Source: Candidatus Woesearchaeota archaeon
GTDB lineage: Archaea; Nanobdellota; Nanobdellia; Woesearchaeales; GW2011-AR4
Assembly (NCBI GenBank): GCA_018303185.1
Contig: JAGVYR010000001.1
Coordinates: forward strand, 8,461-72,460
Direction: 5' to 3'
DNA: 64,000 nt
Of the stretch, positions 3,792 to 62,933 are shown in pieces (the first letter of the stretch is position 1; every line of letters starts with the position of its first letter). Below the pieces are notes generated by a model. It was not told the origin of the DNA and made no database searches. It saw nothing but the letters and a program-made list of their open reading frames with translations. The position numbers were made by a program, and so were the translations under genes.

Positions 3792-5186
3792 TTACCTTTC
3801 GTAAACCTTAACATTATTTGTAAATCCGCTAACTTGCGATGCTGTCTTTCCAGGAAAAGCTTCGAATTTTATTTTTCTGCCTTCCAGCATCTGCACCAAT
3901 GCTACACCATTAACCTGTCCATCATGCGTGTACGCTTTGGAGATTTTGGCAAAATTCCATCCGTCCCAATTTTCATTTTTATCTGTCAGGTAGCCATACG
4001 GGACAAGCTCATATTTTATTATGCCATCCGTGGCATCAGCATCTTTTGGATCTGGCGCATTGCCTTTGACTGCAAACTGTTTTGCATCCCCTGCATAATC
4101 ACCCATGGAGACAATGATTAAAGCAGGATCTAATCCGTCATATGCAAAGGCAAGGTGTGTACTCCAATAGCCGGGCATGCGCTGGTATTCGGTCTTGCCA
4201 AAATAGCCGTTGGTATTTTCTTCAAACCAATTGCCCACTAATTTCCCGTCAATATCATAATCAATTTTCCCGCCGCGGGGCTCTTTTTGGCGAATGTTTC
4301 TGCCCAAGAGCTGTGTTCGTATGGGCTCAGCAAAATAATCGAACATATCGGCGTTGTGGAGTTTCCATGGCTCAGCAATGTAAGTCTCAGGAACAATGAA
4401 TCCGGAAAGGGTTATCCCATCATTATGTACAGAAAAATCAAACCCTGGCGCTTTTCCTATGGCTTCTCCTGCTTCAACTGCTGCAGTGTTATGTGTATCG
4501 GCAATGGCCTGTAATTTTTCTGATAATTGGTTGACATGGATATAAATGGTATAAAATGAGCAAGTGTGGTGGATAACGAGCCGATAATCGCCAATGCTGC
4601 TGGAGGAATATTCCTGCGGCATGCTCTGAACACTGGTTACAATTCCTGATGCTGGCGCTATAATGTCGCGGAATTTTGCCGTATCTTCCCTGTTGCTGGG
4701 AAAAAGCCATCCTTTTGCGTAATAATAACCATGGTCGATAGGCGTTACATGGCCGCCAATCATTAATCCTATTGGCTCGATGAGTTCAATGTCCTCAATA
4801 CGCATGGGCGGTGAGGTAAAAGTAATAGCCCCTTCGCCAGTGCATCCGCTATTCTCCTGCGGGCCAAAATCTTCTGCTTCAGGGTTTGGGGGAAAAATAA
4901 TCCGGCAGAGTTCAATTTCTTTTCCTCGGCAATACGATTCGCACCGTCCATGGTTATTCTGGCAGAAAGATTTGCATTCTTCTTCGTTAGGGCAGAGAGT
5001 TCCTAATCCTTTATCTCGTGCATTCTCCGGGGTTACTGCACCGGGTTGATAGGCATTTTTATTATTTTGGTTAATGGTTTCGTCCGATCTCTCAGGCTCA
5101 AAACTTTCTTGTTGAGCGCATCCACTTATGAAAATAACTAAAAAGACAGGCAATAGCAGTACCAAATAACCTCTTCTTAACCTCAT
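3792..5186 (-). CDS. secreted lipoprotein, Cys-rich N-terminal module, unknown function
   Basis: The long ORF runs to 5342, but the likely start is the Met at 5186 (MRLRRGYLVLLLPVFLVIFISGCAQQ, a signal peptide with a lipobox). A CxxxC-rich stretch follows. Confidence 0.6.
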   Translation of the reverse strand: MRLRRGYLVLLLPVFLVIFISGCAQQESFEPERSDETINQNNKNAYQPGAVTPENARDKGLGTLCPNEEECKSFCQNNHGRCESYCRGKEIELCRIIFPPNPEAEDFGPQENSGCTGEGAITFTSPPMRIEDIELIEPIGLMIGGHVTPIDHGYYYAKGWLFPSNREDTAKFRDIIAPASGIVTSVQSMPQEYSSSSIGDYRLVIHHTCSFYTIYIHVNQLSEKLQAIADTHNTAAVEAGEAIGKAPGFDFSVHNDGITLSGFIVPETYIAEPWKLHNADMFDYFAEPIRTQLLGRNIRQKEPRGGKIDYDIDGKLVGNWFEENTNGYFGKTEYQRMPGYWSTHLAFAYDGLDPALIIVSMGDYAGDAKQFAVKGNAPDPKDADATDGIIKYELVPYGYLTDKNENWDGWNFAKISKAYTHDGQVNGVALVQMLEGRKIKFEAFPGKTASQVSGFTNNVKVYER

Positions 5187-5214
5187 GGTATAATCTCTCT
5201 TCTCATTGTATAAT

Positions 5215-5356
5215 AAACTTTCGGCGGCCTTTGGAACTCTGCGGTGCTCACTTCGTTCGGGGCAGATAACAGGCATGCCATATGTTAAACTCAATAACAA
5301 AAACCGCACTAATCCCCGGGCGAAAGCCGCTAACCCTGGCAAAGCGAGATTCGGGA
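5215..5356 (-). repeat. degenerate copy of MITE-like repeat family A
   Basis: It shares ...gctcacttcgttcgg... and ggcaaagcgagattcgggacaaagcc with the copies at 9281-9426, 20606-20811 and 27886-28041. Confidence 0.4.
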
Positions 5357-5435
5357 CAAAGCCTATTTTCCAAAAATATTATAAACCCGAATGTTACTGC
5401 AAAGCCAGCCGAATAAAAAATTAAGGTGATAAAGC

Positions 5436-6542: not shown

Positions 6543-7991
6543 TCATGCTATGATTTTGAATGTCCCGGGCCCTGCCATGCCCATTGAGCAGCTGAACATT
6601 ATATTCCCTGTTTGCTGCGGCGTAAATTTTATTGTCTTTACACCATAAGGAAGCCGCTCAAGTATCTTTAAGGCAGGCACACTTATCACTTTTGCACAGC
6701 CCTGCGCATTTCTTCCGTCAATATTCCACTCAACAGGAATGCCTTTTTTCACAGTAAACGATGAGGGGTAATAATCAAGGCCCCGCACTTCCATGTTCAG
6801 CACCTGCTTCTCTACAGGATCATACATGCCGCTTGTCGGAAGGGAGTATACATTCGTATTGGAAGGGAAAGAAGCCCCTACAAGAGTTATTCCCGGCATT
6901 ATATTGAAAATGCCCAATATGATAACCAGAACTGCAGAAAATGTCATGAAATGCCTCTGCACATTCCCTTTCACAAAGCTTGAGAATGCGCCTATGCCCG
7001 CAAGCGATGGCAGCGTTCCAAGTGAAAAGGCCAGCATGGTCAAAGCCCCTGCAGTAAAGCTTCCGCTCCCCAAAACATAGAGCTGCAGGGCCTGTGTGAA
7101 GCCGCACGGCAAAAAGAAGGTTGATGCCCCAAAAAAGAAAGAAGCTTTGTGGCTCCCTTCCTTATGGCCCGCGTCATAAATCCTGTGCGCTATGAATTTA
7201 GGCATTTTTACATGTATTCTGCTGAGGAAAGGAAATATGTGAAGCAGCTGTATTCCCATGAGCACCATGAGCACGCTTGCTGCCAATGTAATTATTCCAT
7301 GGGCTTTTGCAGAGAGCATGAACACAGATCCTATAAGGCCGACCATTCCGCCTAAAAGAGTGTATGAAACAATCCTCCCGATATTGAAGTATATGTGCGG
7401 CCTGAATCTCTGCCAGCCTTCAAGATTAGGGTGCCTTTCATTATATTTGGCAGCAACGGCAAGCAGCAATCCGCCGGAAACAGCAAGGCATGTTGAAGCC
7501 GAAGCGACAAGCCCAATCAAAAAGATGAAGCCGTAGCTCATATTGTCTGTCACGCCAATGTCGTTGAAAGAAAAATCAAAATGCTTTAAAATAAGGTATG
7601 CTGCGAGTATGATTACAAGCACTGCCCCTATTTCCGCATATTTTTTTTTGTCTAAAGATATTATTGAGCTTTTTATTATTTTATTTTTTATTGGATTTTT
7701 TTCATCTATTTGGCTGTTGTTATTTCTCTCTATGCTGTTGCTTTGATTTTGGTTGCCTTCTTTATTGCTGTTTGGATCATACTTTTCTTCATATGAAAGA
7801 GTGTACTGCTCCGGCAGCTCCTTCTGCAGCAGCTCAAGGCTCACATCATCATTGCAGTCTACAATAACCTCCTCTCTAGCCCTATGGACGCGCGCAGAAT
7901 GCACCCCCTTTGCCTTGCGCAGATTCCTTTCGACAAGCACTTCGCATGCGCTGCAGGTCATTCCTTTTACTTTTAGATTAAGTTTTTTCAT
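6543..7991 (-). CDS. HMA-domain membrane protein with a DsbD/CcdA-like Cys-containing TM core and a C-terminal soluble beta domain
   Basis: N-terminal HMA domain (GMTCSAC) after a probable start at MKKLNLKVKG. There is a low-complexity N/S/Q linker, then six or more TM helices with conserved Cys (ASASTCLAVSGG, FLPCGF). The C-terminal roughly 100-aa domain (YYPSSF...GCAKV...FSCSMGM) could be cupredoxin-like. Confidence 0.65.
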   Translation of the reverse strand: MKKLNLKVKGMTCSACEVLVERNLRKAKGVHSARVHRAREEVIVDCNDDVSLELLQKELPEQYTLSYEEKYDPNSNKEGNQNQSNSIERNNNSQIDEKNPIKNKIIKSSIISLDKKKYAEIGAVLVIILAAYLILKHFDFSFNDIGVTDNMSYGFIFLIGLVASASTCLAVSGGLLLAVAAKYNERHPNLEGWQRFRPHIYFNIGRIVSYTLLGGMVGLIGSVFMLSAKAHGIITLAASVLMVLMGIQLLHIFPFLSRIHVKMPKFIAHRIYDAGHKEGSHKASFFFGASTFFLPCGFTQALQLYVLGSGSFTAGALTMLAFSLGTLPSLAGIGAFSSFVKGNVQRHFMTFSAVLVIILGIFNIMPGITLVGASFPSNTNVYSLPTSGMYDPVEKQVLNMEVRGLDYYPSSFTVKKGIPVEWNIDGRNAQGCAKVISVPALKILERLPYGVKTIKFTPQQTGNIMFSCSMGMAGPGTFKIIA

Positions 7992-8093
7992 TTTGTTGAT
8001 TTTTGCATTTCTTTTTTGTTTGTATATCACTTTATTTTTTATGATATTGCGTGCCGGTTTAGGGCCATTTCTGCAATAGCATTTTTTAAGGTG

Positions 8094-9240: not shown

Positions 9241-9280
9241 TTTTCAGTGTATTTTATTTAACTTATTTCAGGCTTTGTCA

Positions 9281-9426
9281 TAAATAAAGGCAGTGCCGAT
9301 TTGCGAGCCTTGTTTATAGCTCACCAAGCATGACAGGGGACGCTCCATCCGGGATGTCATGCCCGTGAAAAGCTCCTTCAGGCGAGCAGGCACTGCCCGA
9401 GCGAAGCGAGATTTGTGACAAAGCCT
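9281..9426 (-). repeat. MITE-like repeat family A copy (reverse orientation)
   Basis: Its reverse complement aligns along its length with the 20606-20811 copy (gtgcctgctcgcct...cttttcac...catccc...gctcgcaaatcggcac). The terminal inverted repeats are degenerate. Confidence 0.5.
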
Positions 9427-9949: not shown

Positions 9950-10161
9950 TTTTAACGGCTGTGTTTTCGTTTTATTTTTAGGCCTTGTTTTTATTTCAAT
10001 ATTATTACGAATTTTGCACTATTGAATCTTTAATCTCCTGCAGCTTTTATTATTATTGAATTTTTTTATTGTGTATTTTGTATTGCTCTTTTATTGTATT
10101 TTATGATATCATTGAAGATTATTGCTTTTCATTGGATTTTATTGGATCATTGATTATTGCA

Positions 10162-16525: not shown

Positions 16526-16581
16526 ATATAAAGTTTGCGGTTTTAAGTCCTGCTCTCAGATGTTCTTGGCGATATATTAAT

Positions 16582-16666
16582 GGGGGCTGTTAATTTTTAA
16601 TATTGATTAGCCACTATTATGTTCGAAAGACCTAACAAATGCTATTAAAAACTTAGGTCTTTCGTT
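16582..16666 (+). repeat. double-hairpin repeat R1, copy A
   Basis: About 94% identical to 20532-20615. It contains a perfect 12-bp inverted repeat cgaaagacctaa/ttaggtctttcg. Confidence 0.5.
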
Positions 16667-16856
16667 ATAACGAAAACCGAACTAATCCTCGGGCTAAAGT
16701 TTTGCGAAGCAAAGTCACGAACGAAGTGGCTTGACCCGAGGTTTTTATCGTTCGGTTTTCGTGGATTGGAAATGCAAGGAAACCACATTTCCGGCATGCC
16801 GAAAATCTTTGATTTTCGTGCATTCCGCATTGAAGTGCGGGGTTTTAGTTTGAAAT
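16667..16856 (+). repeat. repeat R2, copy A
   Basis: 13-bp inverted arms acgaaaaccgaac/gttcggttttcgt, then a roughly 70-bp block nearly identical to 52492-52562 (ggaaacc.catttccggcatgccgaaaatctttgattttcgtgcattcc...). Confidence 0.5.
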
Positions 16857-19154: not shown

Positions 19155-19582
19155 TTTTTAGTCGGTAGTTTTTTGTTTTTGCTGTTTTAATTGCTTAATG
19201 GTTTTTATTTGGTTTTATTGGGCTTTTTTATTGCATTTTGGCTGTTGTTGCTCTTTTTTTATTTTTTTATTTGATTTATTTTTAATTGTTGAAATTTTTA
19301 TTTTTTTATTGCTTTAACTGCTGAAATTATAGTTTGTTTCTTATCGCTTTTCATTTATTTTATTGTTTAATTATTGAAATCGTTATTTATTGCATACTGT
19401 TTTAATTTTTGTGTTTGGCATTGTTGTTTTGTTGTTTTTAATCTTTGGACTTTTTTCATTGAATTTTTTTGTTATTGCACCTTTTTCATCATAATTTTTG
19501 AAATCTTCCTTCTCGTTTTTTGTTTCTGTTGAATTTTTTTATTGTTTGTCATTAAGCTTTATCTTTGTAAAAGCACAAAATC

Positions 19583-20458: not shown

Positions 20459-20531
20459 ATATTTAGATTAGTTCTACTGTTTAGTAATTAATAAAAATTT
20501 AATACAGTTATTATTGTTTCAAAATATAATA

Positions 20532-20615
20532 GGGGCTGTTAATTTTTAATATCAATCAGCCCCTATTATGTTCGAAAGATCTAACAAATGCTATTAAAAA
20601 CTTAGGTCTTTCGTT
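20532..20615 (+). repeat. double-hairpin repeat R1, copy B
   Basis: taggggctg...cagccccta, a 9-bp stem, plus the cgaaagatctaa/ttaggtctttcg stem. A second copy of the 16582 element. Confidence 0.5.
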
Positions 20616-20811
20616 GGCTATGTAGAAAATCTCGCTCCGCTCGCATAGTGCCTGCTCGCCTTTATGAACTTTTCACTTGCCTGACATCCCATAGGGCTAA
20701 TCTCACTCCGTTCGTTAGTTCGAGTATAGCTCAAACTTCCCCTGTCAGGCTGAATGAGCTATAAATAGGGCTCGCACATTGGCACTATGCTTATTTTCTA
20801 CAGAGCCCCTT
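20606..20811 (+). repeat. MITE-like repeat family A copy
   Basis: Terminal inverted repeats ggctatgtagaaaat / attttctacagagcc. The internal core is shared with 27886-28041 and 9281-9426. It contains a nested sub-element also seen at 476-545. Confidence 0.5.
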
Positions 20812-27885: not shown

Positions 27886-28041
27886 GGCTTCGGTGAAAAT
27901 CTCACTTCGTTCGGCTGGTGCCTGCTCGCCCTTATGAGTTTTTCTCAGGCATGCCACCCCGAATGGGGCATCCCCCGTCATGCTTAATGAGCTTTAAGCA
28001 TGGCTCGCACATTGGCACCAGCTACATTTTCACCGAAGCCT
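27886..28041 (+). mobile_element. MITE-like non-autonomous element (family A), apparently recent insertion
   Basis: 156 bp with perfect 15-bp terminal inverted repeats GGCTTCGGTGAAAAT / ATTTTCACCGAAGCC. It is flanked by a 9-bp direct repeat TATTACTGA on both sides. It has no ORF. Confidence 0.6.
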
Positions 28042-28438: not shown

Positions 28439-28570
28439 GCTAGGTTAAATGGCGCCTATTTATTTTTCTTTTTTTATTTTTAGTTTTTATTGCTTTTCAG
28501 GATTATTGCCTCTGTTCTTTCTTTTTGATGCTGGAGTTTATATTATTCTGTGTATGCCGAATAATCCCGC

Positions 28571-29413: not shown

Positions 29414-29886
29414 TTTATATATTTTTGTATTTGTGGGTTAAGTATAGTACTATGTGTCGGAATTATTCCCTGCCCGAGCATTGTGGCGAGGGCTCATAAG
29501 TGCCGAGCGTGCTCAAAAATTTTCAATTTTTGGCATCCCGGAAATCTTGGATTTTCCAGGATATTGGCTCGGCCTAATTGTCCCGCGAAGCGGTATTTTT
29601 GATTTTTGTCACTTAATCTTACTTAACCGTATTTGTGGTTAAGGCAGAGCCGCCGAATTCATACGGTCGCCAAGTTAAGCGCCTTTTGCTCGGTTGTTTT
29701 TTTGATTTTTATTTTGTTGAAACAATGTTTATTTTTATTGAAGAAAAACAATGCCATTTAATCAGAACTTGTAACCTGCCTCGCAAAAATATTGGCGCTT
29801 AGCTTAACTTGGCTTTACTTTGCCTCAGACAAAAAGCGGGCCTGCCTTAACCTATATTTGCGAGAATAATAAGATAAGAAAACTTC

Positions 29887-30672
29887 TCAATAAAACGCCT
29901 TGAATTCTCCGACTTCGAGCCCTGACTTCGTGAACTTCAGCAGGTTTGCCCCGGGCACAATCTCCGTTCCCCTGAGCTTCTTGACAGCAACCGTCCTGTT
30001 GACGTTCTTGGAAGTGTCATTGAGCTGCATCTGTATGACGCCATCGCAGGCAAACTCAGAAACGCCGTCCTTGGTCAGCAATTCCGTCCCCGGTGGAGAA
30101 TCTGTCAGGTATATCGAAGTCGCTCCAAGGTCGTTAACCCTGTTTATGAAGAGGTAAGTGAACTGGGAAACATCCTCAAAAGGCGCATAGCCTGCAACCT
30201 TCAAAACCTTGTCCCTCCCCAAAACTCCTGTAGGATCCGGCTGGTCCTTCAGCGGAAGGCTGAACATCCTTGCGTTTATATTCAATGCAGAAAGGGAATC
30301 CACCACAATCCTCTGCGCCTTTATTTTCTTCGCTGCCCTGGTTATTGTCTCCACAATATTGTAGCCTATATGGTCAATCGGAACCTTAAGGAACTCAAGC
30401 TTTCCTTCCTTCTGAAGCTTTTCAAGGTCCCAGCCGAATCCCTTTCCATAGGTTTTGAGCTTCTCAGGATCGTCTTCGACTGATACAAAAAGCCCGTTCT
30501 CATTGTTTTCAACAGCCCCTCTATACAAAAACTGAAGCGCAAATATTGTCTTGCCGGTTCCGGGCATGCCGCACACAAGGATGCTCTGCCCCCTTATGAA
30601 GCCCCCTCCAACAAGCCCGTCAAAGCCTTTGACCCCGCTTTTCACCCTTTCAATTCCGGAAACTTTTGCCAT
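29887..30672 (-). CDS. KaiC/RecA-like single-domain ATPase (paralog 1)
   Basis: GIERVKSGVKGFDGLVGGG...GMPGTGKT (Walker A), RIVVDSL (Walker B) and the C-terminal ...LEVGEFKAFY. Confidence 0.8.
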   Translation of the reverse strand: MAKVSGIERVKSGVKGFDGLVGGGFIRGQSILVCGMPGTGKTIFALQFLYRGAVENNENGLFVSVEDDPEKLKTYGKGFGWDLEKLQKEGKLEFLKVPIDHIGYNIVETITRAAKKIKAQRIVVDSLSALNINARMFSLPLKDQPDPTGVLGRDKVLKVAGYAPFEDVSQFTYLFINRVNDLGATSIYLTDSPPGTELLTKDGVSEFACDGVIQMQLNDTSKNVNRTVAVKKLRGTEIVPGANLLKFTKSGLEVGEFKAFY

Positions 30673-30721
30673 TTTGATTCTTTACTGAAGGTTATTATTA
30701 AAGTTTTTGATTTGATAAGTT

Positions 30722-30800
30722 GGCGTGCGGCGAGGCTGGGGTCGCGCCCTGCGGGCTGCCGAGCAGGTTTTCGCAGAAAACCGTCGCACCGCCATAAAGC
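30722..30800 (+). repeat. GC-rich structured element R4, copy 1
   Basis: gcgtgcggcgagg...ggggtcgcgccctgcggg...aggttttcgcagaaaacc...gtcgcaccgcc. It is homologous to 51181-51262 and 53741-53832. Confidence 0.5.
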
Positions 30801-30815
30801 TTGGCTCAAGCTCAC

Positions 30816-31514
30816 TTAAAGCACAATAGTATCAGGGAAAACAACCATTCCCTTTTCAGTGATTCTCATCGAGCATATCTTGGATTCGTGCCTCGTGCCC
30901 CTCATCTTGTACACTTCAATGGCCCTGAACCTCAGCCCTTTCGGCTCTCTCTGGTTGTAGAGCAGTATGATTGCATCCGCCATGAATCCCATGACAGTCG
31001 AATGGTGCTTGTCAGGGTCCTGATCTTCCTCTGCGACAACAACAGCAGTGCAGCCCCATTCCTCAATCATGTCAAACAGCGCCACAAGCATCCTTCTCTT
31101 CTCTGCTTCTGTGTCAAAAAGCGCCGTATATGCAGACAAGGAATCTATCACAATCCTCTTTGCCTCAACTTCCTGGATTGCCTTCTCTATTTCCTTGCTC
31201 CTTTCTTTTACTATTTTAGCTATCCTTTCCGGGCTGTACTTCAAAAAAATGAAGCGCCCCTGGCTCTCAAGCTTGTTCAGGTCCCAGCCGAATTTGGACA
31301 TGTGGTCATAAAACCTGTTTTTCCTCTCTTCAAAGGAGATATAGATACCGGTCTCACCGTCAGTTATGCCCTCAACAAGAAACTGCGTCGCGAATATGCT
31401 CTTTCCGCATCCGCCGCCGCCCATTACAAGCACTGCGCTGTTCTTTTCAAAGCCGCCCTCTGTGAGCTTGTCAAGCCCTTTGATGCCTGTTGAAATCCTT
31501 GCTTCGTTGGCCAT
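30816..31514 (-). CDS. KaiC/RecA-like single-domain ATPase (paralog 2, divergent)
   Basis: GIKGLDKLTEGG...GGGGCGKS Walker A, RIVIDSL Walker B. Confidence 0.8.
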   Translation of the reverse strand: MANEARISTGIKGLDKLTEGGFEKNSAVLVMGGGGCGKSIFATQFLVEGITDGETGIYISFEERKNRFYDHMSKFGWDLNKLESQGRFIFLKYSPERIAKIVKERSKEIEKAIQEVEAKRIVIDSLSAYTALFDTEAEKRRMLVALFDMIEEWGCTAVVVAEEDQDPDKHHSTVMGFMADAIILLYNQREPKGLRFRAIEVYKMRGTRHESKICSMRITEKGMVVFPDTIVL

Positions 31515-31532
31515 TTTATCTGTAGAAGGCCA

Positions 31533-32219
31533 TCAGTAGAAGGCCTTGTATTCCTCTATCTCAAGCCCTGCTTTCGATATTTTCAGTATGTTCTGGCCGG
31601 GCGTGATTTCTGTGCCCCTCATCTTCTTTATGGAAAGCGTCCTGCTCACAGTCTTGCTGACATCATTGAGCTGCAGCTGTATGACTCCGTCGCATACAAA
31701 CTCCGACACTCCGTCCTTGGTGAGCTGGTCGCCGCCGCCTGCTGAGGGGCTGTCCGTTATGAAAATGCTTGTCACCCCGAGCTCTTCAAGCACCCCTACA
31801 AAAGAGTACACGAACTGCGTTATGTCCTCGAAAGCCATGTAAATTGATGAAAGCGAATCTACGACAAGCCTTTTTGCGTTCATCCTGGTGACTTGCTCCC
31901 TGACTTTGTCCACAATGTCAAATTTCTTGTCAGTAGGCGCAACATGAAGGAACTGTAGTTTCCCTGCCTTTTCCAGCGCCTCAATGTCTTTCCACCCGAA
32001 TTCAGCCCCGTATTTCCTCAGCTTCCTTGGATGCTCTTCAATGCTCACATAAAGCCCGTTTTCATTGAACTTCTTTGCGCCCATATACAGGAACTGCAGC
32101 CCGAATATTGTCTTTCCGGTCCCGGGAGTGCCGCATATCAGTGTAGAGTGCCCTCTGGGAATGCCTCCTCCGACAAGTTTTTCAAGCCCCTTTATTCCGC
32201 TGTTTATCCTTTCCATCAA
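31533..32219 (-). CDS. KaiC/RecA-like single-domain ATPase (paralog 3)
   Basis: GTPGTGKT, RLVVDSL and the C-terminal ...LEIEEYKAFY. A close paralog of the 29887 gene. Confidence 0.8.
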   Translation of the reverse strand: MMERINSGIKGLEKLVGGGIPRGHSTLICGTPGTGKTIFGLQFLYMGAKKFNENGLYVSIEEHPRKLRKYGAEFGWKDIEALEKAGKLQFLHVAPTDKKFDIVDKVREQVTRMNAKRLVVDSLSSIYMAFEDITQFVYSFVGVLEELGVTSIFITDSPSAGGGDQLTKDGVSEFVCDGVIQLQLNDVSKTVSRTLSIKKMRGTEITPGQNILKISKAGLEIEEYKAFY

Positions 32220-44163: not shown

Positions 44164-45948
44164 ATGAACAAGAAAGCAGACTATTGTTTTGAGGTTTCAT
44201 GGGAAGTGTGCAATAAAGTCGGAGGAATCTTCACTGTTGTAAAGAGCAAGGCAGCAAGGATGGTTGAGTATTACCATGAAAACTATTACCTTATAGGCCC
44301 TTACTTCCATGACAAGGCTCTGGGCCAGTTCATTGAAGGCACTCCCGAGCATTCTTTCAGGGAAGCGGCTGACAGCCTGAAATCCCAGGGCATAACCTGC
44401 CATTTTGGGAAATGGCGCGGCGATGGAGAGCCGAACGTAATCCTGATAGACTTTGAAAGCTTCAGGGGCAAAATCAACGACATAAAAAAGGAATTATGGG
44501 AATATTTCAAGGTTGACTCCATAAGGGCAGGCAATGACTATGACGAGCCGGTTGCGTTCGCATATGCTTCTGGAAAAGTGATTGAATCATTGTCAGGCGC
44601 GCTGCACAATAAAAAAGTTGTCGCGCATTTCCATGAATGGCTCTCAGGCGCCGGATTATTGTACTTGAAATCAAGAAGCGCGAAAGTCGCAACAGTATTC
44701 ACAACGCACGCAACCATCTTAGGCAGGACACTGGCCTCATCAGGCATTGACATCTACAATGTATGGGACAAGATAAACCCTGAGGAAGAAGCAAAGAAAC
44801 ATTCCATAGAGTCAAAATTCACGATAGAAAAGCAGTCTGCACTGAATGCTGATGCATTCACGACTGTGTCGGAAATCACGGCTATGGAGGCAGAGCACAT
44901 GCTGGGGAGAAAGGCTGACGTCTTGGTACTAAACGGCCTTGACATAGAAAAATTCCCGAGCTTTGAAGACGCGTCAATACACCACCGCATCATGCGCGAC
45001 AAGATGCGCGAATTCCTTGAATATTATTTCTTCCCTTACTACAGCTTTGACCTGAACCAGTCATTGAACTTTTTCACGTGCGCCCGCTATGAATTCCATG
45101 ACAAGGGAATAAACATAATGATAAAGGCCCTTGGAAACCTGAACAGGAGGCTGATGCAGGAGAAAAGCAGCAAGACAATCGTGGCATTCTTCTTCGTGCC
45201 TGCTGATGTAAGGAGCATGAAACCCGAAATAATAGAGAACAGGACAAACTACCAGGACATAAAGGGGTCTTTCGACGATTCCCTGGAAGACATCAAGAGG
45301 AACATCATGCGCATTCTTCTTTCAGGGAAGAAGATATCGGAAGAGACGGTATTTTCAAAAGAATTCGTCTCTGAAGTTAAAGGGAAATTGTCCAGATTCA
45401 AAAGAAAAGGCCTCCCGCCTGTATGCACCCATGACCTCCATGCCCCTAAAGATGATATTCTCCACGGGCTCTGGCAGGAAGGGCTTAACAATGGTGAGAA
45501 TAGCAGGGTCAAGGTAATATTCTACCCGATTTACCTTACAGGCGCCGATAACCTTCTCAACCTGAGCTATTATGAGGCAATAGAAGCCGGCCATCTGGGA
45601 ATCTTCCCCTCATATTACGAGCCGTGGGGCTATACTCCTCTTGAAGCGGGTTCTTTGGGAGTTGCTTCTGTAACCACTGACCTCGCGGGCTTCGGAAGGT
45701 TCTTCTGCGCTGAATGCCGCCAAGGGGATGAAGCGGGAATCTTCATAGTGAAGCGGCTTAATAAGACAGAAGATGACGCGGTAAGGCAGCTTGAGGATGT
45801 CATGTACAGGTACAGCCAGTTTTCCCAGAATGAGAGGATAGACAACAAGCTCCAGGCAAGGAAAATAGCGGCAACAGCTGACTGGAAGCTCTTCATAAAG
45901 AATTACATTGAGGCGCACAACAAGGCAATTGAGAAGGCGTTTGGCTAG
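44164..45948 (+). CDS. glycogen synthase, GT3 (eukaryote/animal-fungal type) family
   Basis: The N-terminus FEVSWEVCNKVGGIFTV matches the GT3 hallmark (FEVAWEVANKVGGIYTV in eukaryotic GSY). It is 594 aa. A C-terminal YEPWGYTPLE block is present. Confidence 0.75.
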   Translation: MNKKADYCFEVSWEVCNKVGGIFTVVKSKAARMVEYYHENYYLIGPYFHDKALGQFIEGTPEHSFREAADSLKSQGITCHFGKWRGDGEPNVILIDFESFRGKINDIKKELWEYFKVDSIRAGNDYDEPVAFAYASGKVIESLSGALHNKKVVAHFHEWLSGAGLLYLKSRSAKVATVFTTHATILGRTLASSGIDIYNVWDKINPEEEAKKHSIESKFTIEKQSALNADAFTTVSEITAMEAEHMLGRKADVLVLNGLDIEKFPSFEDASIHHRIMRDKMREFLEYYFFPYYSFDLNQSLNFFTCARYEFHDKGINIMIKALGNLNRRLMQEKSSKTIVAFFFVPADVRSMKPEIIENRTNYQDIKGSFDDSLEDIKRNIMRILLSGKKISEETVFSKEFVSEVKGKLSRFKRKGLPPVCTHDLHAPKDDILHGLWQEGLNNGENSRVKVIFYPIYLTGADNLLNLSYYEAIEAGHLGIFPSYYEPWGYTPLEAGSLGVASVTTDLAGFGRFFCAECRQGDEAGIFIVKRLNKTEDDAVRQLEDVMYRYSQFSQNERIDNKLQARKIAATADWKLFIKNYIEAHNKAIEKAFG

Positions 45949-46158
45949 ATTTTTTGATTTTTCTTGGCTCTCGATTTCGTTTTATTGGATTTTTTGTGTT
46001 TTGTTTATTGTATTTTTGTCTGTCGGTTTGCAATCGCTTAACCCGTAGCTGATTTTTAACTGGTTTTTTCAATACGCTCCGCAATTCTTGTCGCAAGGCT
46101 CGCTCTCACGCATAACGCTCGCCTCGCGGCTTTATTTTACCAAAACAGAAATCCGGCG

Positions 46159-51032: not shown

Positions 51033-51180
51033 AAGGTTAGATAAGCGAAAAATTTATATATACTTAACGTACTTATTGTATATCAAATACGTTTAGTATG
51101 TACTTATGGAGTGAATAAATGGCTAAAAATGAGCAAGATTGAATCCATTTTATGGGATTAAGTGAGCAGACTCCTCTCGC

Positions 51181-51262
51181 TTACCCGTAGCGGCGTGCGG
51201 CGAGGCAGGGGACGCTCCCTGCGGGATGCCGAGCAGGTTTCGAAGAAACCGTCGCACCGCCA
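51181..51262 (+). repeat. GC-rich structured element R4, copy 2
   Basis: gcggcgtgcggcgaggcaggggacgctccctgcgggatgccgagcaggtttcgaagaaaccgtcgcaccgcc. It ends about 36 nt before the ATG of the PhoU-like gene and is immediately followed by AATATAAT. Confidence 0.5.
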
Positions 51263-51297
51263 ATATAATTAGACTATGAAAATACAAGAAACTTAAC

Positions 51298-52245: not shown

Positions 52246-52411
52246 GAAGATGAATTCAAGATTAAGGTTAGCATCCTCTTTGCGAGGCTACGAAATTGGC
52301 ATATTAAGGGAGTTGAGGGGGACGCCCCCTACGGGGCTTCAACGATACTTCCAGAGCAACAGCAATAGCCGAGCCTGATGCTAACCGACGACAGCAGAAA
52401 AAAACAATAAA

Positions 52412-52564
52412 ACAAAACAATAACGAAAACCGAAATTATCCCTCTTAAAGGCAGAGATTTTTGCCGTTCGGTTTTCGGGATTGAAAATGCGAGGAAACCG
52501 CATTTCCGGCATGCCGAAAATCTTTGATTTTCGTGCATTCCACACTAAAGTGCAGGGGTTTTAG
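52412..52564 (+). repeat. repeat R2, copy B
   Basis: cgaaaaccgaa/ttcggttttcg inverted arms plus a 70-bp block nearly identical to 16782-16856. Confidence 0.5.
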
Positions 52565-52667
52565 GCCCAATGAAAATTCCTGCGAAATTTCCAATAACAA
52601 AAACAACAAAAGATACACCAAACAAATACAACAATAAATCAAAACAAAAAATCAAACAAATTCAAAA

Positions 52668-53740: not shown

Positions 53741-53832
53741 AAATAGTTTTGGCGTGGCGTGCTACGAGCCGGGGGACGCCCCATACGGGGTGGCGAGTAG
53801 GGCTTTTGCGAGGCAAAAGACCGTAGCACCGC
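53741..53832 (+). repeat. GC-rich structured element R4, copy 3 (divergent)
   Basis: ggcgtg...gggggacgccccatacgggg...ggcttttgcgaggcaaaagacc...gcaccgcc. An AAAAATATAAAAATATTA box follows directly and the GDE gene starts about 30 nt later. Confidence 0.45.
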
Positions 53833-53862
53833 CTAAAAATATAAAAATATTATCAAGCAACA

Positions 53863-55719
53863 ATGGTAAAGGCAATCCACCAGTTAAGCGGCGAAAGGAT
53901 AGAGAAAGACGTCGAAAAGGCAGATTTTATTCTCACAAGCGGCAATGGAAGCTACCTTTACCTTGGAGATTATCCTGAAAGCCGCTATCAGGGCTTTTTC
54001 ATATATGAGAACTCGGAGATGCTCAAGGTTCTTGAGCTGATATCCGTAAAGGGCGCAGCCCCGATAGACACTGTGAAAAACCTCTTCTATTCTGTCCAGA
54101 GGAAAAGAGGCATGCTGATAGAAACCTTCTTCCTTCCAAGAGGCAAAAGCTCCATGATGTACAGCCTCAACGAAAAGAGAGAGATAGAGATTTTCCTCGA
54201 TTTCAAAAAATCCTATGACAACAGGGTATGGGGCCTCTCCTACAGCACCTATGAGCAGGATGGCTGCATCATAATAGAATTCACAAAAGCGACAGACAGC
54301 AGGGAGGATGCCTCTTCAGGGCAGGAGGAATACAAGGCCTATCTTGCTATAAAGTCAGACACCGGAAAATTCTCATTAGCGGGAAATTGGATTAAGCATG
54401 ACTATAATCTGGATAAAACAAGAGGGTCAATACCGAATTCAAGGTTTGTATGCCATGCACTTAATATGGAAGGAAGCAAATTTTTTTTCTCAGCCTCGTT
54501 CAGCAAAGAAAAGGCAATAGGGGAATGCATCAGCATCTTTCAGAACAATGAATCAATATTAAAGGGAGATGAGCAGTCATTAGGGAGGATAATAGCTTCA
54601 AAAGATATAAATAGAATAAAAGACAGGGAAAAAAGGTACGCTTACATCTCATCGCTGCTCTCCCTAAGCTCATTGGTTGTAAAAGAAGAAAAGAGCGCAG
54701 GAATTTTTGCCGGGCTGCCGTGGTTTTTCCAGTTCTGGGCAAGGGATGCCGCAATATCGTGCCGCGGCTTGAAAAGCATAGACCTAAAATTGTCAAAAAA
54801 AATCCTTTTTGACATGCTTGGCACCATGAATAATGAGGGGCGCGTGCTTAACATATACAGCCTTTCGGATAAGGATGATTCAAATCAGGCAGCCGGCATA
54901 GCAAGCACCGCAGACGCGACAGGATGGATTTTCCTCAGGCTGTACTGGCTCTTCAGGGAAGGGAACCTCAATATTATAGAAAGGGCAAAGGCAAAAAAGC
55001 TGCTGCTTGATGCTATAAGGCTTTCCGAAGGCAGGATAAATGAGGAAGGGTTTGAAGCCAACAGGGAAAAAGAGACATGGATGGATACTTCAGATCCCGC
55101 AGGCAAAGACAGGAGGGAAGGCATAAGGATAGAGATTCAGGCTTTAAGGCTGATGATATACCGCTTCGCTTATGAATTGACAGGCATGCAGAAATTCCTT
55201 AAGTGGGAGGAGCTCATGAAAGAGAGGGTTTTGTCCGCATTCTATAAGGACGGGATGCTTGCAGACGGAGTTGGGGATTTTACAGTAAGGCCGAACATTT
55301 TCATAGCATATTACGCCTATCCGTGGCTGCTTGATGAAAGCCAGTGGAAGCTTGTTTTTGATTTGGCAATAAAAAAGCTGTGGCTTGACTGGGGCGGCTT
55401 TGCCACAATAGAGAAAGGCCATCCTCTTTTTCAGTGGAATTACACAGGGGAAAGCAATGCAAGCTACCACAGGGGAGACTCATGGTTTTGGGTAAATTGC
55501 CTTGCGGCTTTGTGCATGCTTAGGCTTGACAGCAAGAAATACTACAGGAATATACTTAAGGTAATGGAAGCGGGCACGCAGGAAATTCTCTGGATGGGCG
55601 CAATATCGCACCATTCCGAGGTAAGCTCTGCATCCTCGTTAAAGAGCGAGGGATGCATGATGCAGGCATGGAGCAGCGCCATGTTCCTGGAGCTTTTGCA
55701 GGAATTTTTTTCAGTCTAG
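53863..55719 (+). CDS. glycogen debranching enzyme (amylo-alpha-1,6-glucosidase, GH133/GDE_C)
   Basis: GLPWFFQFWARDAAIS and ETWMDT motifs, 618 aa. Confidence 0.8.
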   Translation: MVKAIHQLSGERIEKDVEKADFILTSGNGSYLYLGDYPESRYQGFFIYENSEMLKVLELISVKGAAPIDTVKNLFYSVQRKRGMLIETFFLPRGKSSMMYSLNEKREIEIFLDFKKSYDNRVWGLSYSTYEQDGCIIIEFTKATDSREDASSGQEEYKAYLAIKSDTGKFSLAGNWIKHDYNLDKTRGSIPNSRFVCHALNMEGSKFFFSASFSKEKAIGECISIFQNNESILKGDEQSLGRIIASKDINRIKDREKRYAYISSLLSLSSLVVKEEKSAGIFAGLPWFFQFWARDAAISCRGLKSIDLKLSKKILFDMLGTMNNEGRVLNIYSLSDKDDSNQAAGIASTADATGWIFLRLYWLFREGNLNIIERAKAKKLLLDAIRLSEGRINEEGFEANREKETWMDTSDPAGKDRREGIRIEIQALRLMIYRFAYELTGMQKFLKWEELMKERVLSAFYKDGMLADGVGDFTVRPNIFIAYYAYPWLLDESQWKLVFDLAIKKLWLDWGGFATIEKGHPLFQWNYTGESNASYHRGDSWFWVNCLAALCMLRLDSKKYYRNILKVMEAGTQEILWMGAISHHSEVSSASSLKSEGCMMQAWSSAMFLELLQEFFSV

Positions 55720-56094
55720 AAAAGCAGCCTTTATCCCGGAAGCGGTAAGTTTTTCAGATATCTCTTCATCTCCCCTGTAAACGAAAACTTTCTGCACTCC
55801 TAGGTTTTTTATCGCTTTTGAGATATAAGCAACGTCATCCGATTTCAGCCTTACAAGAGCGCCTTCATACTTTTTGGGAGCTTCATTGCCCTGAAACAGG
55901 GTCATTGAATCGTAGCTCTGCTCATCCAAAACTTCAAAATCAGGCGGAATAATGCGGGCTGTTGCAGTTACTGATTTCCCCGATTGCGTTTGCTGGTTAG
56001 GGCCGGATGAATCTGCAATAAAAAAAGAATCTGCATTGAAGGAAAATAATATTAAAAATGATATTAATATTGTCGCTGTCTTGATTACAACCAC
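55711..56094 (-). CDS. hypothetical secreted protein
   Basis: 127-aa ORF with an N-terminal hydrophobic segment. Confidence 0.35.
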   Translation of the reverse strand: MVVIKTATILISFLILFSFNADSFFIADSSGPNQQTQSGKSVTATARIIPPDFEVLDEQSYDSMTLFQGNEAPKKYEGALVRLKSDDVAYISKAIKNLGVQKVFVYRGDEEISEKLTASGIKAAFLD

Positions 56095-58417: not shown

Positions 58418-58966
58418 CTAGCCGCACTTAAAGCTGTTCAGCATGCTGGTGTACATTGCAAGATTTGCAGGCTCTGCTTCGGGTGAAGTCACCAATACCA
58501 CCACTATATGGCTGTCGCCGCACACAGTGCCTGACACAAAAGAGTCGATTCCCTCCCCGGCAAACTTAATCGCATAAGTGTACCATTCTTCCTGCCCGAA
58601 TTTCCTTACGCCGACTGACTTCGCTGCCTCATCTTCTGAAGTGCCTTCATTGCTGCCGGAAAAGTCAGACAGCGCCTGCTCAACTCCCAGCTCATTCAGG
58701 GGCTTGCCATTTGTGGGATTGACGGTGAATATCACAAGATTGTCGCTCTTCCTGATTGCCCAGTTATTTGGCAAATCCTTGGTTATCTGCTCCCAATCAG
58801 CAGGATAGCTAAAGGTAAAGCCGTATTCTTCGCTCTTAAAAGCGCCCGCTTCGGAGCCTTCATTTTCTGGAGAGCAGGATACAGCCAGAAGCATTATTGC
58901 AGCCAATGCAGGAAACTTAAAGCCCATTGCAAAAATCTGATTGCTGGTGCTTATAAAGTTTTCCAC
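58418..58966 (-). CDS. hypothetical lipoprotein
   Basis: Lipobox LLAVSCSP. Confidence 0.45.
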   Translation of the reverse strand: MENFISTSNQIFAMGFKFPALAAIMLLAVSCSPENEGSEAGAFKSEEYGFTFSYPADWEQITKDLPNNWAIRKSDNLVIFTVNPTNGKPLNELGVEQALSDFSGSNEGTSEDEAAKSVGVRKFGQEEWYTYAIKFAGEGIDSFVSGTVCGDSHIVVVLVTSPEAEPANLAMYTSMLNSFKCG

Positions 58967-59211
58967 AAAACGGTTAAGTAAAATATTATGCTTTTTTTAT
59001 CTTTCCTCTGCCAGCAATAATGGCGGCTGTCGTCGCTCCGCTCCTCGTCGGACATCCCGTAGGGAGCGTCCCCTGTCCGACCAGCGCCATCGTTGGCTTA
59101 TATTTTTGTCACTTAATCTTACTTAACTCCACAAAACCAAAAGGTTTATATACTGATGATACTACTATTAAGTAATAAATATATTACTTAATAATACGGG
59201 GGGATGGTTGC

Positions 59212-59835: not shown

Positions 59836-60052
59836 GGTTTTTATATTATTTTCTTAGTCTTATAACTTTGTTATTGTTGATTTATTGATTTTTATTGATT
59901 TTTTATGTTGTTTTATTGTACAGCAAAACTGCGTTTTATGTATTGTTTCTATTGATTTATTGTTTTTTATGTATTGTTTTTATTGAATTTTTTATTGGTT
60001 AAAGTTTTATTTTAAAAAGAGCCATAAATAAAAAACAAATAAAAAGGCTTGC

Positions 60053-61353: not shown

Positions 61354-62094
61354 CTATGTCAGCTCGACATAGAACCAGTAGCTTGTCGGGACCGCAGTGT
61401 CTCCGTCCTCTCCTACGACCATCTGGAAATCCGCAGAATGGCCCTGGAATCCTGTCGCATCCTGCTCAAGCAGCGCAGCGTAAATGATCTTGGTGCTGTT
61501 GTCCGTAAGTATTGTTTCATTGTACCTTAACTGGTCAGCTGCATCATTCACGTTGAGCGAGACCGCCTTACAGCCGCTGTTTTCGTCTATTGTCGCGCTT
61601 CCGACATCAAAACTTCCGGTGAATGTCAGGTTGAACGTCTCGTTCACTCCATCCACATCATTTGCATCTGCCCCGAGGCTTGCTTCAAGCTGCCCCAGAG
61701 TGACATTCTGCTCTGCTGCTGTTTTAGTGAAGTTAAAGCATCCCACATTATTCCATGTAGGCGCTGTTGAGCTGTTGACAGCGTAAATTTCTCCCTGCGG
61801 GCTCATGTCCGCCCACTGATACAGGCTGTTTCCCGCAGCATCCTCAAGCGATATTGTCCCTGTGACATTGCCGAAGAAGCCCTGCCATCTTTGGGTTGCC
61901 CTGGAAGCCGTTATTGAAAGTGATGTTACGTTTCCTGCCTGTGCCTCCTGCTGTATTGCGCTCTGGGCCTGTGCTGTCTGGCTGTCACCTCTTGTAATTG
62001 AATCCGGCCCTATGGGCTGGGCAAATGCAGCTGCACTCAGGGCGATTGCTAAAACTAATAATTCAAGCACTAGCACTTTCGCTCTCAGTCGCAT
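61354..62094 (-). CDS. secreted sequon-rich protein, FYVEL-terminus paralog family (member 3)
   Basis: Signal peptide AFA-QP, QRWQGFFGNVTGTI and the C-terminus YWFYVELT. Confidence 0.6.
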   Translation of the reverse strand: MRLRAKVLVLELLVLAIALSAAAFAQPIGPDSITRGDSQTAQAQSAIQQEAQAGNVTSLSITASRATQRWQGFFGNVTGTISLEDAAGNSLYQWADMSPQGEIYAVNSSTAPTWNNVGCFNFTKTAAEQNVTLGQLEASLGADANDVDGVNETFNLTFTGSFDVGSATIDENSGCKAVSLNVNDAADQLRYNETILTDNSTKIIYAALLEQDATGFQGHSADFQMVVGEDGDTAVPTSYWFYVELT

Positions 62095-62183
62095 TTGCTC
62101 TTTTCCCGCTGCTTCCAGTCTTTGTGTCTTATCTTGTTATCAAAAATTAAAAAATAAAATTAAAAAATCAAAAGGCTGCCTGC

Positions 62184-62933
62184 CTAGGACAGCTCTACGT
62201 AAAACCAATAAGGTGTAGATGCTACAATATCTCCGTCTTCTCCTACAATCATCTCGAAGTCTGCAGGATGGTTCTGGAATCCTGTCGCGCTCTGCTCCAG
62301 TATTGCGGTGTAGATGACGCTGTGCCTTGTCCCGTTGTCTATCAATATTGTCTCGTTGAAGCGGGCAGCGTCATAGGCATCATTCACGTTCAGTGAAACA
62401 TGCTTGCAGTCGCTTGTCAGGGTGACACTTCCGATCGTTATTGGCTGCTTAGTTGTATGGTTGAAGGTTTCATTGACTCCGTCCTCATCCAGTGCGCTCA
62501 TTCCAAGATTAGATTCCAAGGCACTTAATGTAAGTCTCTGCGCTGTGCTTGACTTAGTGTGGTTAAAACATGTCACATTGCTCCATGCCGGAGCTGTCGA
62601 GCTGTTGACTGCGTATATCTCTCCTTGGGGGACGTCATCTGCCCATTGGTAGAGGCTGTTTCCCGCGGCATCATCAAGTGCTATTGTCCCTGTGACATTG
62701 CCGAAGAAGCCCTGCCATCTTTGTGAGGCCCTTGTGCCGCTTACCAGCAGGCCCGTCACGTTTCCCCCTTCAGCCTCCTGCTGGACGCCGCCAGGTGCCG
62801 TCGCCGTCTGGCTGTCACCCCTTGTTATGCTGCTGGGGCCGATTGGATTGGACTGCGCGTACACGCCAGCGCTAAAAACAACCAATGCTATCAGGAAGAC
62901 AGCAATTTTCGCAAATTTCATTTCCATTTTCAT
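62184..62933 (-). CDS. secreted sequon-rich protein, FYVEL-terminus paralog family (member 4)
   Basis: Signal peptide VYA-QS, QRWQGFFGNVTGTI and the C-terminus YWFYVELS. About 70% identical to member 3. Confidence 0.6.
   Translation of the reverse strand: MKMEMKFAKIAVFLIALVVFSAGVYAQSNPIGPSSITRGDSQTATAPGGVQQEAEGGNVTGLLVSGTRASQRWQGFFGNVTGTIALDDAAGNSLYQWADDVPQGEIYAVNSSTAPAWSNVTCFNHTKSSTAQRLTLSALESNLGMSALDEDGVNETFNHTTKQPITIGSVTLTSDCKHVSLNVNDAYDAARFNETILIDNGTRHSVIYTAILEQSATGFQNHPADFEMIVGEDGDIVASTPYWFYVELS

Follow-up and report, generated by a model that had tools for sequence, protein, structure and literature searches.

The stretch analyzed here (the window) comprises 64,000 nucleotides (nt) of a Candidatus Woesearchaeota genome from groundwater (GenBank assembly GCA_018303185.1, contig JAGVYR010000001.1, positions 8,461 to 72,460) and has a GC content of about 44%. 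Near 51 kb, a PhoU-like gene is followed by genes for a GH15 protein and a debranching enzyme (GDE), and GC-rich repeats, here termed R4, stand directly upstream of the first and the third of these; another R4 copy lies among KaiC-like genes near 31 kb. All three copies are on the plus strand, have GC fractions of 0.68 to 0.74, and scored 79 to 82 bits with covariance model R1, which was built from 10 R4 sequences and has 74 positions, three helices, and an apical hairpin. Copies within the window are 73 to 92% identical and differ by compensatory changes. Within a superfamily defined by a shared core, GGGGNNGC-Y-CCC-loop-GGG-Z, R4 represents the short form with a three-way junction, and the window holds at least nine members of this superfamily, all of them intergenic. 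With up to two mismatches allowed, the core pattern GGGGNCGCNCCCWRCGGG matched six times in the window, where 0.02 matches were expected from shuffles. An earlier note on this DNA had listed four copies; all four exist, but the one that it called weaker belongs to a different, longer subtype.

From its 5' end, R4 reads GGCGUGC, a stem strand of the form (G/U)(G/A)CGAG, the capped core GGGGNCGC-Y-CCC-URC-GGG-Z, the returning stem down to GAG, (C/U)AGG, a hairpin, and CC-GU(C/A)-GCACCGCC. Helix P1 has 7 bp and a single bulged C in its 3' strand (GGCG-UGC ... GCA-C-CGCC). P2 has about 9 bp, with symmetric tandem G·A pairs (5'-CGAG/5'-CGAG) in most copies, and is capped by an 8-nt 5' bulge, GGGGNNGC, together with a 4-bp hairpin, Y-CCC-(3 nt)-GGG-Z; the GGGGNNGC stretch either forms an asymmetric bulge or pairs instead with the CCC run. 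The P3 hairpin differs among copies in length and sequence, and after it a GU(C/A) junction leads back to P1. The earlier note had taken GGGG/CCCC as the central stem, but the hairpin that covaries is Y-CCC-loop-GGG-Z instead.

A stricter R4 pattern recovered 66 metagenome loci in groundwater or sediment samples from Rifle, Hainich, and elsewhere; these contained 65 distinct R4 sequences, and an R1 search of the loci matched 93 R4 copies. The 86 distinct sequences among them were used to assess covariation. Columns fixed by the search pattern (GGCG, GGGG..GC, CC, GGG, UG, AGG, CCGU, and CGCC) are uninformative, and the signal lies in the free columns. Pairing was possible in 88.6% of cells, compared with 74.1% in shuffles. 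Changes on both sides occurred at 16 of the 23 pairs and in 313 cells, against 87 ± 9 cells in shuffles (0 of 500 reached 313); when the partners were slid by 1 to 3 columns, only 15 to 30 such cells were left. The pair that closes the core hairpin, Y-Z, was C-G in 47 sequences, U-A in 19, and G-C in 17. The P2 G·A positions held G·A or A·G in 55 sequences and various Watson-Crick pairs in the other 31, and they therefore lie within a helix. RNAalifold recovered the same helices independently. The compensation that the earlier note had seen in the third hairpin of the window copies (GGUUUC/GAAACC, GGUUUUC/GAAAACC, and GCUUUUGC/GCAAAAG) extends to 84 of the 86 sequences, in which P3 is a single hairpin of 15 to 62 nt with unrelated stem sequences, and its more general claim, selection for secondary structure with real compensatory changes, holds in that the covariation goes beyond shuffles. 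Folding energies of single sequences were unexceptional (z-scores of −0.4 to −2.6 on either strand), and single-sequence thermodynamics with RNA and DNA parameters on both strands did not discriminate. The evidence for structure is thus comparative rather than thermodynamic, and it is on comparative grounds that we regard the R4 structure as real.

Two alternative partners are available to positions 9 and 10, namely, the 3' strand of P2, where they show 25 and 11 double changes, and the junction's invariant GU, where the pairs are always R-U and Y-G. Both pairings are kept possible in nearly all copies, which suggests a switchable junction. Known motifs were also considered and rejected. A UNCG-tetraloop register of the core hairpin conflicts with the Y-Z covariation, which fits a triloop. 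A kink-turn or K-loop (L7Ae-type) reading of CGAG/CGAG fails because the motif is symmetric in P2, lacks a 3-nt bulge, and is Watson-Crick in 31 of the 86 sequences, and a kink-turn in the apex fails because GA...GA is not kept in the copy at 30738 (GU...GC) or in the copy at 52318.

Long forms of the superfamily were found in about 15 genomes, with lengths of 155 to 170 nt, or 192 nt where an extra module is inserted. Their boundaries were set by eye from complementary outer stems, automated calling from minimum-free-energy folds being unreliable. A terminal helix of 13 to 16 bp (P0) is followed by a second helix, often GGUUAGC.../...GCUAACC, a CGAG/CGAG motif, large internal loops, and a stem that bears the same core, and at the place of P3 in R4 stands a mini-hairpin of the form CGA-GCGAAGC-GAG. 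The mini-hairpin varies compensatorily among copies (GCGAAGC, ACGAAGU, AUGAAAU, and GCGGAGC), as does P0, for example between the two 155-nt paralogues in the window (Table 1). Among 35 non-redundant copies, the core-bearing stem, mostly 6 to 9 bp, shows 34 different 5' arms. P1 and the architecture of the long form at 52266 to 52386 recur in many Woesearchaeota and Nanoarchaeota assemblies.

Table 1. Superfamily members and adjoining promoter-like sequences in the window.
Feature	Position	Strand	Remarks
R4 copy 2 (initial finding)	51192-51261	+	R1 80.4 bits; identical locus in other samples; P1 GGCGUGC/GCA-C-CGCC, C bulged; P2 GGCGAGGCA/UGCCGAGC with tandem G·A; P2 cap: core GGGGACGC-UCCC-UGC-GGGA; P3 GGUUUC-GAA-GAAACC; junction GUC
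R4 copy 1	30722-30793	+	R1 82.4 bits
R4 copy 3	53756-53833	+	R1 79.1 bits; preceded by a 5-nt duplicate, GGCGU, at 53751-53755
Short variant	59020-59090	-	R1 48.9 bits at 59022-59088; P1 AUGGCG-CUG/CAG-C-CGCCAU; core arm GUCGGACA/UGUCCGAC; GCGGAGC mini-hairpin replaces P3
Variant of the 59090-59020 type	429-545	-	R1 16.4 bits; repeat family D18; core interrupted by extra hairpin module of about 45 nt (GGGGGUUGG ... CCCUUCGGGG)
Long form, GGUUAGC...GCUAACC type	52266-52386	+	Its tip is the weaker copy of the earlier note
Long form, 155 nt	9271-9425	+	P0 of 15 bp, GGCUUUGUCAUAAAU/AUUUGUGACAAAGCC; order: P0, P1, GCGAGCC/GGCGAGC with tandem G·A, internal loops, 8-bp stem, core; CGA-GCGAAGC-GAG mini-hairpin precedes 3' strand of P0
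Long form, 155 nt, paralogue of 9271-9425	27886-28040	-	P0 compensatorily changed, GGCUUCGGUGAAAAU/AUUUUCACCGAAGCC; mini-hairpin ACGAAGU
Long form, 192 nt	20616-20807	-	Repeat families D10 and D17; extra module of about 45 nt within core (GGGGA ... CCCUAUGGGA)
Degenerate, core-less long form	about 5225-5370	-	Carries GGCUUUGUC, GGUUAGCGGC, and CGAACGAAGUGAG
TATA-like box AATATAAT, abutting R4 copy 2	51262-51269	+	PhoU-like ATG at 51298; box 29 nt before
TATA-like stretch TAAAAATATAAAAATATTA, abutting R4 copy 3	53834-53852	+	GDE ATG at 53863, 11 nt after

Next, the mismatches tolerated in the R4 helices were compared. There were 83 G·U against 7 A·C and 189 G·A against 3 C·U. Because G·U and G·A far exceed A·C and C·U, one strand folds well and its complement does not, and the two-strand DNA cruciform offered in the earlier note is disfavored by the same counts. 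The P3 loops were GAA (30), GCA (6), GGA (5), AAA (5), AGA (3), and GUA (3), with no GNRA loop in the 86 sequences, and the mini-hairpins seen were GCGAAGC, GCGGAGC, GCGUAGC, and GCGTTAGC. Mini-hairpins of the GCGNAGC/GCGNNAGC type have extraordinary stability as DNA but far less as RNA, and they occur in known initiation signals of single-stranded DNA (ssDNA) (PMC13037366); d(GNA) loops closed by C-G likewise form stable DNA hairpins (PMC3201870). Judged from these loop statistics, the folded form is probably ssDNA.

Orientation relative to genes was near random. In a mixed set of 42 elements, the downstream gene was on the same strand in 23 cases and on the opposite strand in 15, and orientation flips along the window. 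Among 24 solo R4 copies from other genomes, 9 lay antisense and 4 lay sense between co-directional genes, 8 lay between divergent genes, and 3 lay between convergent genes; adjacent gene starts were 8 to 491 nt away, and gene 3' ends made up half of the flanks. No protein family recurred beside the copies in about 95 loci. The arrangement of adjacent elements was strict. All 28 pairs were head-to-head; the gap was exactly 5 nt in 17 of them and 2 to 6 nt in 21, with spacers such as ACGTC or ACGGT before GGCG. Nearly all were heterodimers of a GGCGUGC/GGCGUUC type (T1) and a GGCGCUS/GGCGCAA/GGCGCAG type (T2), the P2 and P3 helices of the two partners being unrelated. In the outer stem of the dimer, the complement of the partner's first 7 to 12 nt pairs with its short copy on the far side, and many units stand within a further complementary outer stem whose sequence differs by subfamily (for example, GGCAACAACAAU/AUUAUUGUUGUUGCC).

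These arrangements bear on the possibility that the elements are a structured RNA family, either small noncoding RNA genes or modules of read-through mRNAs (stabilization, processing, or termination), with the conserved apex as the site of an RNA-binding protein. Such RNAs would fit the strong covariation and the strand specificity of the G·U and G·A pairs, as well as the uniform 155- to 170-nt length of the long forms with GGC at the 5' end. In the window, seven of eight copies face the same way as the downstream gene, and R4 copies 2 and 3 and the long form at 52266 to 52386 would all be sense in a PhoU-GH15-GDE transcript; outside it, however, the solo copies between co-directional genes are mostly antisense, as counted above. 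TATA-like boxes occur 14 to 22 nt upstream of 8 of 14 long forms, but they stand too near for transcription to begin at the first base, they are found at −22 to −14 on the opposite flank too, and no oligo-T terminators follow the elements. The divergent 5' ends of head-to-head pairs are only 2 to 6 nt apart and thus leave no room for promoters. The core hairpin loops read UNCG if shifted by one position, a register at odds with the Y-Z covariation, and GNA triloops without GNRA would be unusual for stable RNAs. A search of Rfam 15 at gathering score gave no family match over the window, and with E values of up to 5 to 10 the window elements and eight other loci returned only tRNAs and noise; ARAGORN found no tRNA-like genes in the window. 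Overall, a structured RNA family is the main rival explanation, possible but in our view doubtful.

Evidence for insertion came from a relative, GCA_054040355.1 (32% GC), which keeps the gene order of window positions 46 to 62 kb at 45 to 63% protein identity. In this genome, the PhoU-like, GH15, and GDE genes are each 1 nt apart, compared with 422 and 130 nt in the window, and a second relative (L191) likewise has a 1-nt gap between the GH15 and GDE genes. R4 copy 3 occupies most of the 130-nt spacer. The 422-nt spacer (52246 to 52667) contains the long form at 52266 to 52386 and other hairpin repeats, and folding of the whole spacer gave a z-score of −5.2. Upstream of the PhoU-like ATG, the distance from a conserved promoter/operator block is 13 nt in the first relative and about 190 nt, including R4 copy 2, in the window. 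The syntenic block measures 13.8 kb in the window and 12.0 kb in that relative, and no family member was found in either relative.

The promoter/operator block itself (51033 to 51106; 3903 to 3975 in the first relative) is a divergent 70-nt segment (…AGCGAAAAATTTATATATACTTAACGTA…AAATACGTTTAGTATGTAC) that is about 80% identical between the two genomes, while the proteins flanking it are only about 58 to 61% identical. It holds an inverted repeat, ACTTAACGTA/TACGTTTAGT, predicted to be a probable regulator site, and the PhoU-like protein has an AbrB-like N terminus, as judged by eye. Two minus-strand open reading frames (ORFs) of 127 and 182 amino acids (55711 to 56094 and 58418 to 58966), the second of which adjoins the short variant at 59090 to 59020, are without counterpart in the relative; these ORFs and the enlarged spacers make up the additional 1.8 kb or so of the syntenic block.

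In other loci, R4 copies 95 to 99% identical to one another occur with unrelated flanks. A DDE_Tnp_1 transposase gene was found 60 to 280 nt from R4 in 4 of about 95 loci, which raises the question of whether R4 elements are termini or internal-deletion derivatives of a classical DDE insertion sequence (IS), that is, MITEs (miniature inverted-repeat transposable elements). The head-to-head pairs resemble two inverted ends, and a Woesearchaeal genome was flagged as MITE-rich by a MITE-Tracker-type survey (PMC11602168). However, the DDE_Tnp_1 IS (L087, 186 to 1300; L158, 654 to 1908; L149, 409 to 1750; and L162, 425 to 1841) has inverted ends of its own, CAGTATCTCCG...CGGAGATACTG, so that R4 is not the terminus of this IS, the only one detected close to copies, in line with the view of the earlier note that the elements are not decayed MITE ends. 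R4 accompanies the IS as a passenger or neighbor, inside it in three cases and outside it in one; within ISs, it lies between the transposase gene and the IS end, in either orientation and on either side of the gene. At L087 and L158, whose transposases are 32% identical, R4 with its own covarying outer stem stands 38 to 41 nt inside the right end, which suggests long-term carriage or a hotspot. The outer stems of R4 differ compensatorily and are not conserved inverted ends, each pair joins two different subtypes whose P2 and P3 are unrelated, and no target-site duplications were found at the copies. An origin as IS ends or MITEs is therefore very unlikely. The earlier note had contrasted a structured element with a MITE; the structure is indeed conserved, but the choice is a false one, since R4 is also an inserted multicopy repeat, like the repetitive extragenic palindromes (REPs) of bacteria.

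The relationship to promoters was examined next. R4 copies 2 and 3 do stand upstream of TATA-like boxes, as the earlier note had reported, although they abut the boxes directly instead of ending 5 to 10 nt away. The boxes are not part of the repeat and share no sequence with each other. The proposal built on this arrangement was that R4 is a transcription factor B recognition element (BRE), an upstream-activating sequence, or a promoter-modulating cruciform. In its favor, the A/T boxes that copies 2 and 3 abut lie 29 to 36 nt before ATGs, copy 1 is about 19 to 30 nt from a TATA-like box (30692 to 30703) of the minus-strand gene that starts at 30672, and downstream genes need promoters once an operon is split. 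However, copy 1 has the opposite orientation and turns its other end to its promoter, and the 24 solo copies elsewhere have neither a fixed position nor a fixed orientation relative to gene starts. Copies also occur within ISs and as head-to-head pairs, only one strand folds, and the same genes are without the element in relatives, where it is absent from the orthologous promoters and junctions. The BRE consensus is purine-rich, whereas the 3' end of R4 reads ...CACCGCC. A promoter role is thus highly improbable. Given the variable orientation and distance, the dissimilar boxes, and the relatives that have neither element nor box, the elements appear to have landed in minimal spacers whose genes now use adjacent A/T-rich promoters, and their proximity to TATA boxes is apparently a by-product of how short those spacers are. 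A stable fold beside a promoter may still have local effects, such as insulation from read-through.

To survey the distribution, the exact core was scanned against one genome per species. Besides many chance matches in GC-rich bacteria, the scan gave about 27 loci with the same architectures in low-GC metagenome-assembled genomes (MAGs) and single-amplified genomes, labeled Woesearchaeota, Nanoarchaeota, Nanoarchaeia, "archaeon," and, in some cases, Methanosarcinales. The third-party MAG bins called "uncultured Methanosarcinales" (L028, L059, L061, L070, L088, L101, and L113) have 31 to 48% GC and bear the same elements; either these labels or the binning are wrong, or the family crosses phyla. 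IMG/VR viral contigs gave chance matches only for the core and none for the R4 pattern. In the MITE-Tracker survey, one Woesearchaeal genome was among the archaeal genomes most dense in "cMITEs," with 105 per Mb, and no structural description of these was given (PMC11602168); they may overlap with the R4 superfamily. Beyond this bulk count, no prior description was found in the literature on DPANN archaea. R4 and its long forms thus apparently constitute a large, previously uncharacterized family of structure-conserving repeats in Woesearchaeota-type (DPANN) archaea.

Several further features of the window adjoin these elements. Three tandem KaiC-like ATPase genes occupy 29887 to 32219 on the minus strand, and R4 copy 1 separates the first two, being antisense to both, with its 5' end 49 nt from the start of gene 29887-30672. 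The degenerate long form runs into ORF 3792-5342 at the start that was called mechanically; the ORF as called is probably overlong. Beside the variant at 545 to 429, a mosaic of mini-hairpins of tandem-G·A/GNA type (CGAGCGAAGCGAG, GAGCGTTAGCGAG, and GCACGAAGTGC) covers 560 to 745 on the minus strand. Two hairpin-rich repeat families without the core motif, one represented at 16578 to 16666 and 20527 to 20615 (89 nt, 93% identity) and the other at 16763 to 16846 and 52478 to 52561 (84 nt, 90% identity), adjoin long-form elements or occupy other long spacers. Two tandem paralogous genes 830 nt apart lie at 61354 to 62933 on the minus strand (repeat families D4, D7, and D16). T-rich, low-complexity spacers of the type TTGTTATTGTTGATTTATTG, which may be clusters of oligo-T terminators, recur in long intergenic regions (7657 to 8036, 10049 to 10105, 19170 to 19538, 28456 to 28502, 29685 to 29734, 45937 to 46017, and 59868 to 60012).

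Taking together the family as observed, its strand-specific fold, the rule that governs dimers, and the lack of elements in syntenic relatives, we on balance favor an interpretation in which the superfamily consists of intergenic repeats resembling REPs and bacterial interspersed mosaic elements (BIMEs), inserted, selected for structure, and acting as a folded single strand. The repeats would have been inserted into intergenic spacers and maintained by selection on how one defined strand folds, probably as ssDNA, since the hairpins end almost exclusively in C(GNA)G triloops and GCGNAGC/GCGNNAGC mini-hairpins with sheared G·A flanks. The GGGGNNGC stretch with the CCC-triloop-GGG apex, the bulged C of P1, and the invariant GU of the junction could form the recognition surface for a putative trans-acting protein that copies or uses the element, and the neighboring TATA boxes may be promoters that were needed, or retained, after an element had split abutting genes.

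A number of points weigh against this interpretation. No target-site duplications were found, and neither was a filled and empty site pair between close strains, assemblies from the same population being identical (401 nt at R4 copy 3); a breakpoint between loci L154 and L157 falls 11 nt outside the element and is uninformative as to where the element ends. The comparators are distant (45 to 63% amino acid identity), so that loss in the relatives is formally possible. In about 95 loci, no HUH/Y1 or other recurrent gene, and hence no mobilizing enzyme, was found near the copies. With respect to ssDNA, it is the loop types that separate it from RNA, as single-sequence energies do not discriminate and G·U and sheared G·A pairs are tolerated in both. 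The old window copies, with their compensatory changes, also fit a host-selected structured RNA, and the long forms are uniform in length and often start with GGC, as transcripts might. Inserted repeats and structured RNA are not mutually exclusive, and the two explanations overlap, since bacterial REPs also act as RNA. REPs themselves are simple hairpins of 20 to 40 nt, whereas members of the R4 superfamily are 70 to 190 nt long and combine a three-way junction with tandem G·A pairs and an asymmetric apex that is conserved; no REP-associated tyrosine transposase (RAYT) was found near R4 copies, and in a 2018 survey RAYT classes were not seen in Archaea, which had only classical IS200-type Y1 transposases (PMC6006769).

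DPANN genomes are regarded as minimal and tightly packed. Even so, at least 2% of this 64-kb stretch consists of one structured-repeat superfamily, which separates genes that abut in a relative. To our knowledge, REP/RAYT-type systems have been described for bacteria only, and no such element had previously been characterized in this domain and lineage. We tentatively raise the possibility that R4 represents the first system in Archaea that resembles REPs and their paired form (REPINs), in which elaborately folded ssDNA elements, made up of GCGNAGC mini-hairpins, sheared G·A pairs, and a conserved G-rich bulge at the apex, would be copied into intergenic DNA by a putative DPANN enzyme, would be long-lived under structural selection, and would split operons and require new promoters in genomes that are otherwise considered streamlined. 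If true, an archaeal analogue with so much more elaborate a fold would add to the known kinds of structure-dependent mobile or domesticated DNA and would imply a protein that reads a conserved nucleic acid shape. The covariance model and the core motif provide a specific metagenome marker for these lineages and flag contigs whose taxonomic labels may be wrong, and they account for GC-rich islands for which annotation would otherwise suggest new small RNAs or promoter elements.

The R4 superfamily was compared with known systems. Klein et al. reportedly described, in 2002, GC-rich noncoding RNAs of AT-rich archaea (Hgc/SscA type). These share with R4 the appearance as GC-rich structured islands in AT-rich archaeal intergenic DNA, and some form small paralogous families; R4 differs in matching nothing in Rfam even permissively and in a copy number, dimers, and insertion evidence that go beyond theirs. 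With regard to the features of independent small RNA genes, the elements show covariation; their TATA-like boxes stand at −22 to −14 on both flanks, whereas a promoter of their own would be expected at about −26, and no T-runs follow.

Folded single-strand recombination sites, such as the attC sites of integrons or targets of another site-specific recombinase, also invite comparison, as Ghaly et al. reportedly found integrons in DPANN-type archaea in 2022. Like attC sites, R4 elements conserve structure while varying in sequence, have a bulged C that is extrahelical within the basal stem, vary in terminal structure, and fold in a strand-specific manner that suits fold-based recognition. However, R4 ends in GGCG...CGCC and contains no RYYYAAC/GTTRRRY core sites (R' and R''), and in the GGUUAGC type the order of GTT and AAC is wrong. 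Mixed orientation and head-to-head pairs replace the co-oriented arrays with one site per cassette, the flanks are ordinary syntenic, housekeeping chromosomal genes, no integrase gene recurs nearby, and attC sites do not have the conserved apex. The attC comparison was thus rejected, and we give a recombination-site origin only the slightest chance.

With MITEs, R4 shares its short, noncoding, multicopy, intergenic nature, ends that are inverted repeats, and near-identical copies with unrelated flanks; the density in the window, about 140 per Mb, may be compared with the 105 "cMITEs" per Mb reported (PMC11602168). Assignment to classical MITEs fails on conserved terminal repeats that match a parent IS and on target-site duplications. 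In R4, the end stems covary and the internal loops are the conserved part. A second likeness is to ssDNA signals, namely, the complementary-strand origins of phages G4 and St-1, ssiA of RSF1010, and the early promoters of N4, which are multi-hairpin, strand-specific, and about 70 to 160 nt long and use mini-hairpins of the GCGAAGC, GCGGAGC, and GCGTTAGC types as well as C(GNA)G triloops (PMC13037366). Each of those signals is present once, as an origin or promoter element of a phage or plasmid, whereas here about 10 chromosomal copies occur per 64 kb, on both strands.

Lastly, the comparison with REPs, BIMEs, and REPINs shows a difference in position: R4 has no preference for sites downstream of genes. 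The junction of P3 and P1 in R4 reads CGUC (most copies) or GUAG, the sequences of the two REP tags (CGTC and GTAG), but internally and not as an unpaired 5' tag; GUAGG is also present after P2. The shared features concern organization. Both are high-copy, GC-rich, extragenic imperfect palindromes with compensatory stems; in both, head-to-head dimers predominate, head-to-tail dimers are absent, and subtypes combine into heterodimers, as the Y and Z REPs do in the BIMEs of E. coli; and in both, spacers are sometimes very short and copies lie inside palindromic flanks (PMC3733652).

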